Source: a virus
Lineage: Duplodnaviria; Heunggongvirae; Uroviricota; Caudoviricetes
Strand: one strand, 5' to 3'
DNA length: 25,224 bases
IMG/VR virus record: IMGVR_UViG_3300002835_005179
Coordinates: 64,001-89,224 of that record
Below, in pieces: positions 11,258 to 21,042 of this stretch. A program made the position numbers and the translations under genes. The notes under the pieces are model-generated. The model did not search any database, was not told the DNA's origin, and saw only the letters and a program-made list of their open reading frames with translations. Each line of letters begins with the position of its first letter. Within the stretch, counting starts at the first letter, position 1.

Positions 11258-11285
11258 TTGACATTCATCATGAATAAGGTATAAT
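11258..11285 (+). promoter_or_regulatory. Sigma70-like promoter for the peptidase-vWA gene
   Basis: TTGACA-N16-TATAAT-N7-ATG. Confidence 0.75.
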
Positions 11286-13599: not shown

Positions 13600-13697
13600 A
13601 ACTTCATTATGAAGTTGAAGGAGTTCCGTTCGGTGTGTAAAAGTTTTTTTCTAAAAATGCTTGACATCAACCTCCATTAAAGGTATAATTGAAGTAT
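13600..13697 (+). repeat. 98-bp direct repeat with early promoter, copy 1
   Basis: Matches 14842-14939 with 2 mismatches; contains TTGACA-N17-TATAAT. Confidence 0.95.
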
Positions 13698-14400
13698 GGT
13701 TACAATATTAAAGGGACTTGTGGGGTCGCATGCTTATGGACATGCGACTCCAGAATCAGATAAAGATTGGATGACGGTATATGTCGGAGGAATAGATTCA
13801 TACTTTGGTCTGAAAAGAGCAGATACTTCGCATTCAGTATCAGAAGATGTAGATGTAACTGATTACGAATTTAAGAAATTCGTTTCTCTTTGTTGTAATT
13901 TTAATCCGAATGTGATTCCTCTGCTTTTCTTAAAGAAAGAATCTTATGATTCAATCACTAACGAATTTGGCTTGAGATTAGTGCAAGCTAAAAATCTCTT
14001 CTTAACAAAAAGATGCTATAACTCATTAAGAGGATACGCAACTTCTCAAGAAAAGAAAGCGAGACTCGGATTAACAGAAAAATTGGGTCAGAAGAGGAAG
14101 GTCCTTGTAGATAAATATGGTTATGATGTAAAGGCTGCTGCACACACTGTCAGATTATTACGTCTAGCAAAACATATATTTTTGTACAATGAAGTTAATC
14201 TTGAAGAAGCAGCAGAAGAGTGTATGAAATATCGTTCCGGTTTCTTTTCAAAAGAAGAATTCCAGAATAGGTTCGATGAATTGATACTTCAAGTTGATGA
14301 TTCATTCTCTTCTTGTATTCTTCCAGAAGATGTTGATGCGACTACAGTAAATGCATTTTGTGTTAATTTTTTGAAAGATTGGTTTGAGGAACATGAATAA
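13696..14400 (+). CDS. Pol-beta superfamily nucleotidyltransferase (RlaP/YcgL/NrdC.11-like)
   Basis: GLVGSHAYGHATPESDKDW (GS..D.D), NPNVI and YDVKAAAHTVRL. Confidence 0.85.
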   Translation: MVTILKGLVGSHAYGHATPESDKDWMTVYVGGIDSYFGLKRADTSHSVSEDVDVTDYEFKKFVSLCCNFNPNVIPLLFLKKESYDSITNEFGLRLVQAKNLFLTKRCYNSLRGYATSQEKKARLGLTEKLGQKRKVLVDKYGYDVKAAAHTVRLLRLAKHIFLYNEVNLEEAAEECMKYRSGFFSKEEFQNRFDELILQVDDSFSSCILPEDVDATTVNAFCVNFLKDWFEEHE

Positions 14401-14882: not shown

Positions 14883-14939
14883 AAGTTTTTTTCTAAAAAT
14901 GCTTGACATCAACCTCCATTAAAGGTATAATTGAAGTAT
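14842..14939 (+). repeat. 98-bp direct repeat with early promoter, copy 2
   Basis: Matches 13600-13697. Confidence 0.95.
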
Positions 14940-14997
14940 AGTAGAAAACTATTCTGATCAAAGTAGTGTGAAAGAACTAGTGTGCAAGGAAATTAAC

Positions 14998-15738
14998 ATG
15001 CATAAAATTATAATTCCCGATATCCACCAAAATATAGATCGTTTGAATTCTATTCTTCAAACTCCTGAATGCCAGGAAGCACAAGAAATTATTTTTCTTG
15101 GCGACTACTTTGATTCTTTTGATTATGATTTTTACACACCAGAAATGTGTAAGTTTCTAAACAATAACATTAATAATGAACGATATACCTTTCTTATCGG
15201 AAATCACGATATTCATTATATTAGTTCGAATACGAATTACAGATGTTCTGGTTGGTCTTTCCAAAAGCAATCTATTGTTGATAAATTTTTAGATAAACAA
15301 GTAATTCGAAAACTTCGTCCGTTCAAATATGAGATGATTCAAGATAAACATTTTTTATTCTCTCATGCTGGTTTGCATCCTTCATTTGTCCCATTTAATT
15401 TTTCTGATATATTAAAAGACAATAATGTTTCTGACTGGTTCAATAATCTAGAACAGAGTACTATGGCTAAACTTATCAGTGGAATTAATGATCCATTATT
15501 TGGTGCTGGAAAGGATCGTGGTGGTTTTCAGAAAATCGGTGGTATCACTTGGTTGGATTGGAGAAATTTCGAATTAATCGAGAACTTAAATCAAGTAGTC
15601 GGACACTCTTACAGAATAATGCCTGATATGATTAATAGTTTTGATGAATCATCAATAAATATTAATATCGATACGAATTTGAGAAATTATTTGAGGTTGA
15701 ATTTGTATGATACAGTTCATTACGAATTTCTTTCGTGA
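14998..15738 (+). CDS. Calcineurin-like metallophosphoesterase
   Basis: DIH, GDYFD, GNHD, HAG and GHS motifs; SD AAGGA before ATG 14998. Confidence 0.9.
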   Translation: MHKIIIPDIHQNIDRLNSILQTPECQEAQEIIFLGDYFDSFDYDFYTPEMCKFLNNNINNERYTFLIGNHDIHYISSNTNYRCSGWSFQKQSIVDKFLDKQVIRKLRPFKYEMIQDKHFLFSHAGLHPSFVPFNFSDILKDNNVSDWFNNLEQSTMAKLISGINDPLFGAGKDRGGFQKIGGITWLDWRNFELIENLNQVVGHSYRIMPDMINSFDESSININIDTNLRNYLRLNLYDTVHYEFLS

Positions 15739-15925
15739 TATTGATTTAGAAATGATGGAATCCTTTAAGAAAGGAGAAGGCCCAATGATATGGGTCACAC
15801 ATGAAGGAAGAACCTATTTCAATATTAATAAATTCATGAAATCTGAAAAAGGAAAACAAGTTATCTACGATCTTAAACTCTTTTCAGAAAGACATAATTT
15901 GAGACCTTGGAGCGGAATAGATTAG
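15707..15925 (+). CDS. Hypothetical protein
   Basis: 72-aa ORF overlapping the previous stop. Confidence 0.55.
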   Translation: MIQFITNFFRDIDLEMMESFKKGEGPMIWVTHEGRTYFNINKFMKSEKGKQVIYDLKLFSERHNLRPWSGID

Positions 15926-16012
15926 GAGGATGCTGGGGTTGGCTCCCCACACAGTCTAGAAAACTGTAGTATCTCTAACGGGATAATAGTTCGATGCTAT
16001 CATCCTCCTCCA
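15925..16012 (+). tRNA. tRNA-Ser(AGA) with non-canonical 8/4 acceptor/T-stem and long variable arm
   Basis: Acceptor ggaggatg/catcctcc (8 bp), D stem gggg/cccc, anticodon stem acagt/actgt with loop CT-AGA-AA, V stem tatctc/gggata, T stem atag/ctat with TTCGATG loop, then T-CCA. Confidence 0.88.
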
Positions 16013-16016
16013 CAAA

Positions 16017-16209
16017 TAACCAGAAGGTGGGATTAATGGCGTCCATCCTTTAAAGAGTGAATCGTAGTTCCGGCCAATATGGTTGAAAGATTACCATGGG
16101 TATCAGTAAATCTTTGTAGAATATTAATGTCTAATACTTGGCCGCATAAAGTCTAGAAATAGATTGGTAATTCTACTATGGATTCTTTGGCGTAATAGCA
16201 CACTGGTTA
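16017..16209 (+). ncRNA. Putative structured ncRNA of unknown family
   Basis: Noncoding gap with nested helices: taaccag/ctggtta, cggccaa/ttggccg, aaagatt/aatcttt, agtcta-GAAA-tagatt and gaatc/gattc. Confidence 0.55.
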
Positions 16210-16222
16210 ACTTTAAAATAAT

Positions 16223-16564
16223 ATGTTTATCTCAAAACGCACTGAAAAATTTATTAGTAAGTTGAGTCCCAACGAAGACTTCAAAATCGGTCCACAACTC
16301 ACTAGATTGTATGAATTTGGAGACGGCAATGTAATTGATGTTATTTGTGATATAGTTTGTTATACGCCAGATTCAATTGATATTAAAACAGAATATGGAT
16401 CTATGTTGAAAGATTTGAATCTTACTGGATTGATTAATGAATTGGTAGATTATCTATTCGATTATCCAGGAGATTATGATTCTGAAGTTATATCTTATGG
16501 TAATTGGTTAATAGGTTTAACTATACGCAATGATCGATTTTGGGAAGAATATAATCGAAAATAA
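16223..16564 (+). CDS. Hypothetical protein
   Basis: 113-aa ORF with phage-like composition. Confidence 0.7.
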   Translation: MFISKRTEKFISKLSPNEDFKIGPQLTRLYEFGDGNVIDVICDIVCYTPDSIDIKTEYGSMLKDLNLTGLINELVDYLFDYPGDYDSEVISYGNWLIGLTIRNDRFWEEYNRK

Positions 16565-16572
16565 TTAAAGAC

Positions 16573-16662
16573 GGAAAATTGGCAGAGTGGTATTGCACCT
16601 GATTGCTAATCAGTGGTCGTCCTGAAAGGGATGCACAAGTTCGAATCTTGTATTTTCCGCCA
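16573..16662 (+). tRNA. tRNA-Ser(GCT)
   Basis: Canonical 7/5 cloverleaf, long V arm, loop TT-GCT-AA, G73, CCA encoded. Confidence 0.93.
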
Positions 16663-16691
16663 TTGCTTTTTTGTTGTAAATATACTATAAT
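16663..16691 (+). promoter_or_regulatory. Sigma70-like promoter for tRNA-Ile/AAA ATPase
   Basis: TTGCTT-N17-TATAAT. Confidence 0.7.
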
Positions 16692-16702
16692 AGTATTGTA
16701 GT

Positions 16703-16777
16703 GGACGAGTAGCTTAGAGGTAAAGCGTTCGACTGATAATCGAAAGACCGACGGTTCGATCCCTTCCTCGTCCACCA
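16703..16777 (+). tRNA. tRNA-Ile(GAT)
   Basis: ggacgag/ctcgtcc acceptor, loop CT-GAT-AA, A-CCA. Confidence 0.93.
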
Positions 16778-17880: not shown

Positions 17881-17955
17881 GCTGCGATAGCTCAATGGTA
17901 CAGCAGCAGTTTAGTAAACTGCAGATTGACGGTTCGATCCCGTCTCGCAGCTCCA
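17881..17955 (+). tRNA. tRNA-Thr(AGT)
   Basis: gctgcga/tcgcagc acceptor, gcagt/actgc stem, loop TT-AGT-AA, T-CCA. Confidence 0.92.
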
Positions 17956-18054: not shown

Positions 18055-18624
18055 ATGAAATATCTTTTTTGTGATACAGAAACAAGCGGAATCGATCCAT
18101 CTAAGCATGGAATTATCCAAATTGCTGGTTTAATTGACATTGATGGGGAAATCAAAGAATCTTTTGATATTAAGATACAACCCTTTCCAAATCAATTGAT
18201 CTCAAAAGAATCTATGAAGATCAATGGACTTACTGTAGAGGATCTTAAGACATTTCATAAACCACAAGAAGGTTACGCCTTATTGACTGAAATATTTTCG
18301 AAGTATATTTCTAAGTTTGATAAAACAGATAAGTTCTTTTTCGTTGGGTATAATTCAAATTTCGATGATTCATTTCTAAGACAATTCTTTATTAATTCTG
18401 GAGATGAATATTATGGTTCTTGGATTTGGTGGCCGACAATTGATGTATCATCATTTGCTATGGAATTTTTGAAGGAAGAAAGATCTAAGTTTCCAAATTT
18501 CAAATTGGCAACTGTTGCAAAGGCTTTTGGTATCTCAGTTGATGAATCTAGATTACATGAAGCAGTATATGATTCAATTTTAACTCGCTCCATATATCGA
18601 AAGATGATTCTTGGGATTGACTAA
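18055..18624 (+). CDS. DEDDh 3'-5' exonuclease (Pol III epsilon-like)
   Basis: CDTETSG, GYNSNFD and HEAVYD. Confidence 0.9.
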   Translation: MKYLFCDTETSGIDPSKHGIIQIAGLIDIDGEIKESFDIKIQPFPNQLISKESMKINGLTVEDLKTFHKPQEGYALLTEIFSKYISKFDKTDKFFFVGYNSNFDDSFLRQFFINSGDEYYGSWIWWPTIDVSSFAMEFLKEERSKFPNFKLATVAKAFGISVDESRLHEAVYDSILTRSIYRKMILGID

Positions 18625-18982: not shown

Positions 18983-19486
18983 ATGACTGTTCTTGTTTTA
19001 AATTCACAATATTTGCCCATACAAACAACTTCGGTAAAGAAAGCTGTAAAATTGATTTATCGTGGTGTTGCTGTGGCAGAGAAGTACACAGAACAAGTAT
19101 GGAAATCTATCTCTTCAGAAATGATTCTTCCGGCTGTTATTCGTCTAATCAATTTTCATAGATTACCGAATAGATCTTATAAGTTATCTAAGAAGAATAT
19201 TCTCATCAGAGATAGATATACTTGCCAATATTGTCAGGGAATCTTCTCTGAAAGAACTCTGACATTAGATCATGTTATTCCAAAATCAAAGGGTGGATCT
19301 TCTCGTTGGGAAAATTTAGTTGCCGCTTGTAGAAAGTGTAATTCTAAGAAAGCCGATAAGACACCCGAAGAAGCGTGCATGAGATTGTTGTCGAAACCAA
19401 TGAAATTGACAGTCCACACTCACACAACAATATTGAGAAATAAAGGAGAATCAAGACCAGAGTGGTCTGAGTTCTTATTCAATTAA
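18983..19486 (+). CDS. HNH endonuclease
   Basis: RDRYTCQYC, DHVIPKSKGG and WENLVAACRKCNSKK. Confidence 0.93.
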   Translation: MTVLVLNSQYLPIQTTSVKKAVKLIYRGVAVAEKYTEQVWKSISSEMILPAVIRLINFHRLPNRSYKLSKKNILIRDRYTCQYCQGIFSERTLTLDHVIPKSKGGSSRWENLVAACRKCNSKKADKTPEEACMRLLSKPMKLTVHTHTTILRNKGESRPEWSEFLFN

Positions 19487-19874: not shown

Positions 19875-19949
19875 GCCCCTATAGTTCAACGGAAAGAACA
19901 CTAGTCTACGAAACTAAAGATCCAAGTTCAAGTCTTGGTAGGGGTTCCA
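19875..19949 (+). tRNA. tRNA-Arg(ACG)
   Basis: gccccta/taggggt acceptor, loop CT-ACG-AA, CCA encoded. Confidence 0.9.
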
Positions 19950-21002: not shown

Positions 21003-21042
21003 TCGGTGATTCCTTGACAATCACCGACGCCTCTAGTATAAT
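21003..21042 (+). promoter_or_regulatory. Consensus early promoter with a palindrome straddling the -35 box
   Basis: TTGACA-N17-TATAAT; tcggtgatt (21003-21011) / aatcaccga (21019-21027). Confidence 0.85.

Follow-up and report, generated by a model that had tools for sequence, protein, structure and literature searches.

We identified a tRNA gene at positions 15925-16012 of a 25,224-nucleotide (nt) stretch of viral DNA (hereafter the window), which forms the final 25 kb of an IMG/VR virus record of 89 kb (IMGVR_UViG_3300002835_005179, positions 64,001 to 89,224; estimated to be 49% complete). The gene has an 8/4 fold, with an 8-bp acceptor stem and a 4-bp T stem, far beyond what is expected by chance, and its serine anticodon, AGA, carries an A34 that is real, has a single origin and is persistent. 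The explanation that we favor, with a probability of about 0.7, is that the gene encodes a functional phage 8/4 serine tRNA which a single U34-to-A change has made a UCU specialist; its expression, its serylation, the state of A34 and the benefit to the phage are parts of this explanation that we infer. The 8/4 shape, U73 and the setting in a phage tRNA cluster have already been published, and only A34, a single substitution in a UGA family, is new.

Read from the sequence, the plus strand at 15925-16012 is an 88-nt class II tRNA gene with the anticodon AGA, the discriminator U73 and an encoded CCA. Every element of the 8/4 anatomy listed in a preliminary description of this DNA was found (Table 1), and this anatomy is the minimum-energy structure of RNAfold (-32 kcal/mol, z = -3.4), with 0 of 200 shuffled sequences folding equally well. 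Two linker bases lie between the acceptor stem and the D stem and two unpaired bases separate the anticodon stem from the variable stem; an optional fifth D-stem pair, U15934-A15949, corresponds to alignment columns 10:25, which pair in 26 of the 45 relatives described below. The features of a canonical tRNA (a match to the Rfam model RF00005, a 7-bp acceptor stem and a 5-bp T stem) are absent. RF00005 gave no match at this site at its gathering score, nor at E<=10 on a 401-nt slice. ARAGORN, proposed beforehand as a check, made no call here at its default setting, though it listed six canonical tRNAs in the window, and with a relaxed threshold it called tRNA-Ser(aga) at exactly 15925-16012. 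The nearby tRNA-Ser(GCU) that had been offered as an internal control is indeed canonical, with a 7/5 fold and G73. With 8 bp in the acceptor stem and 4 bp in the T stem, the coaxial acceptor branch of the 8/4 tRNA would retain its normal 12 bp.

Relatives were collected from IMG/VR with degenerate pattern scans, of which one fixed the D arm and another fixed the anticodon and T loops with position 34 free; in a third scan the D and T loops were specified and the entire anticodon was left free. We found relatives of the 8/4 tRNA-Ser(AGA) in about 90 uncultured viral contigs, ranging from 4-kb fragments to 543 kb and nearly always within large tRNA clusters. Pair counts were taken on an alignment of 45 distinct sequences, and anticodons and discriminators were tallied on 51 distinct sequences.

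Under the 8/4 structure, 95.9% of the cells of this alignment are standard pairs and two-sided changes occur in 22 of the 28 pairs; 0 of 500 shuffles reached either value, and pairing fell to 37-50% when the partners were slid by 1-3 columns. The eighth acceptor pair (columns 8:82) is formed in all 45 sequences, as G-C in 35, A-U in nine and U-A in one, and the A-U pairs occur on at least four different acceptor-stem backgrounds. Because columns 8 and 82 were unspecified in every search pattern, the covariation of this pair is independent of the collection method. The fifth T-stem pair demanded by a 7/5 fold (65:82) can form in only 10 of the 45 sequences; column 65 instead pairs with column 46 in 45 of 45, with three pair types, as the outermost pair of the variable stem. 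The four T-stem pairs are 97.8% paired across the relatives, the five outer pairs of the variable stem covary, and RNAalifold predicted the 8-bp acceptor stem from the alignment of the 45 relatives alone. The covariation therefore supports the 8/4 fold over the 7/5 fold, which had been named beforehand as the structure to be set against it and which we rejected.

Two members of the family, L061:4413-4500 and L072:1947-2034, have a T stem whose 3' strand is one base longer, which makes an 8/4 fold with a bulge. This recalls the bulged 8/4 forms (selC* tRNA-Cys and a minor tRNA-Sec) described by Mukai et al. (2017, NAR 45:2776, PMC5389517).

A covariance model (R1) was built from 43 family members, with the lineage of the window left out and zero AGA carriers included. 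R1 matched 15925-16012 end to end with 98.3 bits (E ~7e-27), the next best match being a canonical tRNA at 26.5 bits. In the R1 alignment all stems of the 8/4 tRNA-Ser(AGA) are perfectly paired, and the only conserved position at which it differs from the family consensus is 34 (A34 in place of U34). The 89-kb contig contains one copy of the R1 family, and a script scan of this contig (about 49% of a complete genome) for other 8/4 tRNAs, for example a tRNA-His, returned 15925-16012 as the only true one. Searching 50,697 deposited phage genomes by blastn with the 8/4 tRNA-Ser(AGA) and two common family members gave zero matches. In a scan of bacteria with one genome per species, the true relatives were tRNA-Ser(CGA) genes of Chthonomonadales metagenome-assembled genomes and one phage-like contig; 57 of the 67 matches in the representative-genome scan were chance coding sequence, mostly from one oxidoreductase-like gene. 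The 8/4 tRNA-Ser(CGA) genes at the Chthonomonadales loci (L107, L127, L128 and L139) score 60-68 bits with R1 and are a possible cellular reservoir of the 8/4 shape.

The family appears to be committed to serine. With the anticodon left free, we found UGA in 43 distinct sequences (79 loci), CGA in four, GGA in two and AGA in two; all are NGA, and non-serine anticodons were absent from the 51 distinct 8/4 members found in this way. G1-C, G2-C and A3-U are near-invariant in the alignment of 45 sequences and A36-A37-A38 is retained, features which we take to fit the acceptor-stem determinants of seryl-tRNA synthetase (SerRS) and the MiaA substrate motif of bacterial tRNA-Ser. The CCA end is encoded in 41 of 51 members. 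U73 had been regarded as a peculiarity of the gene, a view that does not hold: the family discriminator is G in 32 distinct members, U in 18 and A in one, and Mukai et al. list G73 or U73. An identity as tRNA-Sec or as a selC*-type tRNA was rejected because the anticodon does not fit, the branch has 12 bp and the D stem is short. A search for a SerRS gene in the 89-kb contig gave only a sub-threshold match, and charging by the host SerRS is therefore assumed. The host enzyme would recognize the tRNA by its long variable arm and its conserved GGA/UCC acceptor end, like other class II serine tRNAs.

The preliminary description was right to call the A34 serine anticodon unusual. Raval et al. (2026, bioRxiv 10.64898/2026.05.15.725136) describe ANN tRNAs of the four-fold boxes as absent from prokaryotes and bacteriophages, apart from occasional Leu-AAG and Thr-AGU. 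Within IMG/VR the AGA form is confined to the contig of the window and to 98-99% identical contigs of other samples, and a scan for it across 241 million JGI metagenome records found the same phage lineage only. The closest U34 relatives (L007, L011 and L066) all have the acceptor stem of the 8/4 tRNA-Ser(AGA) and share its D and variable arms between them, which indicates that a single substitution separates the AGA form from a UGA ancestor. Lake runs of 2016 and 2024 contain contigs identical to the window with A at 15958, and in the same samples a second contig, from a different phage with an L011-type tRNA and other flanks, has U34. The lineage itself comprises two haplotypes that differ by 1-2% divergence, a 353-bp indel and one base at the loop-closing pair of the variable stem (15980); both have A34. 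A sequencing error at this position was rejected because A34 recurs in several independent assemblies and in different years.

Other ANN anticodons were also called by ARAGORN in uncultured phage tRNA clusters. Thr-AGU occurs in the viral locus L051, with no close UGU relative found among the fetched loci, and further calls in four-fold boxes were Leu-AAG (L015, L041 and L062), Val-AAC (L030) and Ala-AGC (L060). Such four-fold-box ANN calls make up about 1% of the 955 tRNAs in these clusters, and as ARAGORN calls they conflict with the stated absence of such tRNAs from bacteriophages.

Serine codon usage is in keeping with a UCU reader. In 84 long phage open reading frames (ORFs), TCT accounts for 48% of the serine codons, TCA for 28%, TCG for 10% and TCC for 5%. 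The contig also carries five (TCTNGG)n arrays, with about 131 TCT codons, which place TCT at every second codon of small genes; arrays lie at G000:C1:20455-21080 (+) and 46903-47239 (-) of the contig, outside the window, and they may be a source of extra demand for UCU decoding. Published work on E. coli provides the precedent for decoding. For an orthogonal tRNA(AGA), which showed no inosine, decoding reached 19.7% on UCU and 1.4% on UCC and lay below detection on UCA and UCG (PMC11066159). A Ser-tRNA(AGA) engineered into the chromosome was expressed and matured, remained unmodified and functioned (bioRxiv 10.64898/2026.05.15.725136). The UCU-specialist reading rests on these tRNAs being unedited and near-exclusive for UCU. 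We propose that the 8/4 gene would be expressed from a tRNA cluster transcribed early by an uncultured T4-like phage of freshwater, and that in this one phage lineage the U34-to-A change would have turned a reader of UCA, UCG and UCU into a UCU specialist. A34 would stay unedited and, by the E. coli precedent, read almost exclusively UCU, thereby serving the dominant serine codon of the phage and every second codon of several repeat mini-genes. The tRNA-Thr(AGU) of the same cluster fits the codon usage in a similar manner: ACT makes up 43% of the phage threonine codons, and the most economical reading is that this tRNA plays a like role for ACT.

Several points weigh against a UCU specialist maintained for its benefit. 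The U34 relatives L011, L020, L031 and L023 use TCT at 43-47% of their serine codons, and since they are equally TCT-rich, a TCT bias does not require A34. Purifying selection on an 88-nt gene is undemonstrable with A34 haplotypes that differ by only 1-2%. The search patterns fixed the D arm or loop, the anticodon loop or the T loop, so that the invariance of such columns is by construction; the covariation of the stems is unaffected by this. Finally, we infer transcription, processing, charging and decoding of the 8/4 tRNA-Ser(AGA) from sequence.

The first of these points bears directly on a different explanation, that the 8/4 family is functional while A34 is a neutral or mildly harmful hitch-hiker, with no decoding benefit and in a gene that is maybe heading for loss. 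A34 arose once and is confined to one lineage, the TCT-rich U34 relatives do without it, and the cluster is in flux, with a 353-bp indel directly downstream of the gene and a tRNA-Ile(GAU) that is truncated in the sister haplotype; moreover, engineered ANN tRNAs of the four-fold boxes were mostly neutral in E. coli (Raval et al., 2026). Nevertheless we consider a hitch-hiking A34 unlikely, given that the stems all remain perfectly paired, that the allele is present in the 2016 and 2024 lake runs and in both haplotypes, that the change brings the anticodon closer to Watson-Crick pairing with the serine codon used most, and that a second ANN tRNA, Thr-AGU, matches the codon ACT.

The UCU-specialist reading further supposes that A34 is not deaminated. 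Eukaryotic tRNA-Ser(IGA) reads UCU, UCC and UCA, and the phage tRNA would do the same if a relaxed host TadA or a phage enzyme converted its A34 to inosine. There are three A34 tRNAs in the cluster (Ser-AGA, Thr-AGU and Arg-ACG), and the three codons together make up 81% of the phage serine codons, although UCC on its own is rare (5%). TadA has extended its range to tRNA-Leu(AAG) in some Firmicutes (PMC11472039). The bacterial enzyme is otherwise tightly specific for the loop of tRNA-Arg(ACG), with the consensus YUACGAA, and a relaxed Streptococcus enzyme accepts UAMG (PMC11472039). The loop of the 8/4 tRNA, CUAGAAA, departs from both at positions 35 and 36 (G35 and A36) and thus does not resemble a TadA substrate, and AGA tRNAs were unedited in E. 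coli in both published studies (bioRxiv 10.64898/2026.05.15.725136; PMC11066159). On current knowledge, A-to-I editing of A34 appears unlikely. The contig does encode a candidate enzyme outside the window, a deaminase of 139 aa that has the cytidine-deaminase (CDA) fold and the motifs HAE and PCxxC (C1:15941-16360 in contig coordinates). Its best matches are phage dCMP deaminases (phrog_174, E 3e-14), with weak matches in the PDB to the dCMP deaminases of T4 and S-TIM5, and its gene lies among nucleotide-metabolism genes, beside UvdE and a nucleoside deoxyribosyltransferase-like gene. The protein also reaches the cut-off of the Pfam family MafB19-deam (36.5 vs 27 bits), so that its role as a dCMP deaminase is putative. 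Taken together, we regard inosine at position 34 made by either enzyme as very unlikely.

A bolder version places the emphasis on the lineage, as a natural and selectively maintained user of ANN tRNAs, with Ser-AGA and Thr-AGU as its two examples. In its boldest form a deaminase unlike TadA would convert A34 to inosine, an independent expansion, bacterial or viral, of I34 decoding on an 8/4 body. We hold this version to be quite unlikely.

A UCU specialist also has to be weighed against a role in defense, in which the 8/4 shape or the changed anticodon loop would evade host tRNA-cleaving defense nucleases and the tRNA would replace depleted host tRNA-Ser. Phage tRNAs whose anticodon-loop changes resist host anticodon nucleases have been proposed (PMC10264068), and genes of RNA-repair type, for RlaP and a metallophosphoesterase, lie just upstream of the tRNA as context (Table 1). 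The six remaining tRNAs in the cluster, however, have the canonical shape, and VapC-type nucleases that target serine tRNAs cut at the anticodon GA, which A34 leaves unchanged. The 8/4 shape is no phage-only disguise either, since it is also found in bacterial genomes, namely the Chthonomonadales metagenome assemblies. Evasion seems highly improbable to us.

The host contig bears genes of a T4-like myovirus, encoding a gp32-type single-stranded DNA-binding protein, a Dda-type helicase, a clamp loader and a CobS-like ATPase; the clamp loader shares 54% identity with its counterpart in Pelagibacter phage HTVC008M and about 52% with cyanophage clamp loaders. Near-identical DNA was present in 18 metagenome runs from lake water and freshwater, dated 2016 to 2024. 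A protein-anchored search with the phosphoesterase encoded upstream of the tRNA recovered only 99%-identical contigs. The phage tRNA-cluster setting was confirmed, with six further tRNAs, all canonical, within 4 kb of the 8/4 gene.

The features of this neighborhood are collected in Table 1. Four perfect TTGACA/TATAAT matches, all on the plus strand, occur in the window (11258-11285, 13661-13689, 14903-14931 and 21014-21042), compared with 0.03 expected. No terminator-like site was found between the one at 14903-14931, which would drive ORFs 14968-15738 and 15707-15925, and the tRNA, and the stop codon of the small ORF 15707-15925 overlaps G1 of the tRNA. The 8/4 tRNA-Ser(AGA) would be co-transcribed with these ORFs and processed from an early polycistronic transcript. 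Two lake metatranscriptome runs and two DNA runs were compared with 15400-16700; the RNA contigs (not reads) cover the flanking ORFs and 16061-16278, and not the tRNA, a pattern that does not bear on its expression, ends or A-to-I editing.

Table 1. Coordinates of the 8/4 tRNA-Ser(AGA) gene, its structural elements and neighboring features in the window
Feature	Coordinates	Strand	Evidence and remarks
(8/4) tRNA-Ser(AGA) gene, 88 nt with CCA	15925-16012	+	Sequence, minimum-energy fold, relaxed ARAGORN, model R1 (98.3 bits)
Acceptor stem, 8 bp, 5' strand	15925-15932	+	Partner 16001-16008; 8/8 pairs present in 45/45 relatives
D arm, 4-bp stem GGGG/CCCC (15935-15938/15945-15948), 6-nt loop UUGGCU	15935-15948	+	Fold and relatives
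Anticodon arm, 5-bp stem (15951-15955/15963-15967), loop CUAGAAA	15951-15967	+	Anticodon AGA 15958-15960; A34 is 15958
Long variable arm, 6-bp stem (15970-15975/15980-15985), 4-nt loop	15970-15985	+	Zero unpaired bases before the T stem
T arm, 4-bp stem AUAG/CUAU (15986-15989/15997-16000), 7-nt loop UUCGAUG	15986-16000	+	Fold and relatives
Acceptor 3' strand (16001-16008), discriminator U73 (16009), CCA (16010-16012)	16001-16012	+	Sequence
RlaP (RNA-repair-pathway nucleotidyltransferase)	13696-14400		Upstream of the tRNA
Predicted promoter, perfect sigma-70-type match (TTGACA, 17 nt, TATAAT)	14903-14931	+	Precedes ORFs 14968-15738 and 15707-15925, then the tRNA
Calcineurin-like metallophosphoesterase	14968-15738	+	Upstream of the tRNA
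Canonical 7/5 tRNA-Ser(GCU), G73, AGY reader	16573-16662	+	ARAGORN, Rfam 57.1 bits
tRNA-Thr(AGU), canonical shape, second non-arginine A34 tRNA of the cluster	17881-17955	+	ARAGORN, Rfam 64.5 bits
RNase T-like exonuclease	18055-18624		Among the tRNA genes
HNH endonuclease	18983-19486		Among the tRNA genes
tRNA-Arg(ACG), usual bacterial-type A34 tRNA	19875-19949	+	ARAGORN, Rfam

Some further observations concern the surroundings of the gene. The promoter-like matches at 13661-13689 and 14903-14931 are identical 29-mers, one before the RlaP gene and one before the phosphoesterase gene. The 353-bp segment 16064-16416, directly downstream of the tRNA, is missing from the 99%-identical sister haplotype (L002 and L171). 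It contains the 5' half of an ORF (16223-16564) and, at 16072-16143, a 72-nt tRNA-like element with an acceptor-like stem of 6-7 bp and a D-like arm of 4-5 bp, in which an anticodon or T arm is not clear; the fold of the whole spacer was no better than that of shuffled sequences (z = -0.8). The tRNA-Ile(GAU) at 16703-16777 is intact in the window and lacks its 5' portion in the sister haplotype L002, which suggests that the tRNA cluster is being remodeled within one phage population. An amber-suppressor tRNA(CUA) is located at G000:C1:24146-24220 of the contig, outside the window.

These results have consequences at several levels. The three pair types at the eighth acceptor pair provide support of covariation grade for the 8/4 cloverleaf. 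The phage (8/4) tRNA-Ser family is widespread, with its roughly 90 uncultured viral contigs and all of its anticodons reading UCN, and because standard finders miss many 8/4 copies, phage tRNA inventories undercount serine decoders. Genetic-code engineering uses 8/4 and 9/3 tRNAs as chassis, and our catalogue of natural variants reveals the positions at which an 8/4 chassis tolerates change. A natural and persistent tRNA-Ser(AGA) stands against the absence that a 2026 preprint framed as a paradox (Raval et al.), and the U34/A34 allele pair, on the same tRNA body and co-occurring in one lake, offers a natural test case for A34 in vivo.

The preliminary description had assigned the gene to a rare, described class of 8/4 tRNAs, and the features of that class (8-bp acceptor stem, 4-bp T stem, long variable arm, U73, serine anticodon and phage cluster) were all found here. 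Mukai et al. (2017; PMC5389517) reported (8/4) tRNA-Ser from bacteriophages, from proteobacteria and from rumen Clostridia, and they located serine-anticodon allo-tRNAs in the tRNA clusters of phages of unknown identity. The discriminator of most allo-tRNAs is G73 or U73, SerRS accepts 8/4 and even 9/3 bodies, and 8/4 allo-tRNAs insert serine in E. coli (PMC5389517). Our gene shares with the phage (8/4) tRNA-Ser of Mukai et al. the 8/4 branch, the long variable arm, a serine anticodon, G73 or U73, the location in phage clusters and the failure of standard finders to report it. Their tRNAs, which we compared by description, are specified no further than as having anticodons for serine codons, whereas here the anticodon is AGA, in one lineage of a family of about 90 contigs. 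The two also differ in that the (8/4) tRNA-His companion of the published tRNAs was not found in our 89 kb, and in habitat, a marine algal surface in their case and a freshwater lake in ours.

The core allo-tRNAs (8/4 and 9/3; Acidobacteria, Clostridia and Proteobacteria; PMC5389517) likewise have a 12-bp branch split 8/4, a long variable arm and a SerRS-type identity. They differ in that their D stem is long and capped by a tetraloop, their anticodon stem is longer and their anticodons are mostly not for serine (35 codons), and they are often found near toxin-antitoxin genes. The 8/4 tRNA-Ser(AGA) has a D stem of 4-5 bp, a 6-nt GG loop and a 5-bp anticodon stem, and its family is NGA-only. 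Because neither the long, tetraloop-capped D stem nor the lengthened anticodon stem of the core allo-tRNAs is present at 15925-16012, we place the gene in the (8/4) tRNA-Ser subgroup of Mukai. With bacterial tRNA-Sec (8/5) it has in common the 8-bp acceptor stem, the long variable arm and presumed charging by SerRS. The branch of bacterial tRNA-Sec is 13 bp long, its D stem has 6 bp and a 4-nt loop, and its anticodon is UCA; no match to the Rfam tRNA-Sec model was found at 15925-16012.

A genomic A34 in a four-fold box is known from the tRNA-Thr(AGU) of Mycoplasma and the tRNA-Leu(AAG) of Firmicutes, which serve different amino acids and of which the latter is edited to inosine by an adapted TadA (PMC11472039). 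A natural Ser(AGA) is not among the tRNAs reported in reviews of prokaryotes or phages (Raval et al., 2026). The closest counterparts in anticodon are E. coli serX G34A (Raval et al., 2026) and an orthogonal tRNA(AGA) from M. jannaschii (Schmitt et al., 2024; PMC11066159), which have the same AGA anticodon and operate in bacterial translation. Those are laboratory constructs on 7/5 bodies, whereas the tRNA-Ser(AGA) described here is natural, phage-borne and built on an 8/4 body.

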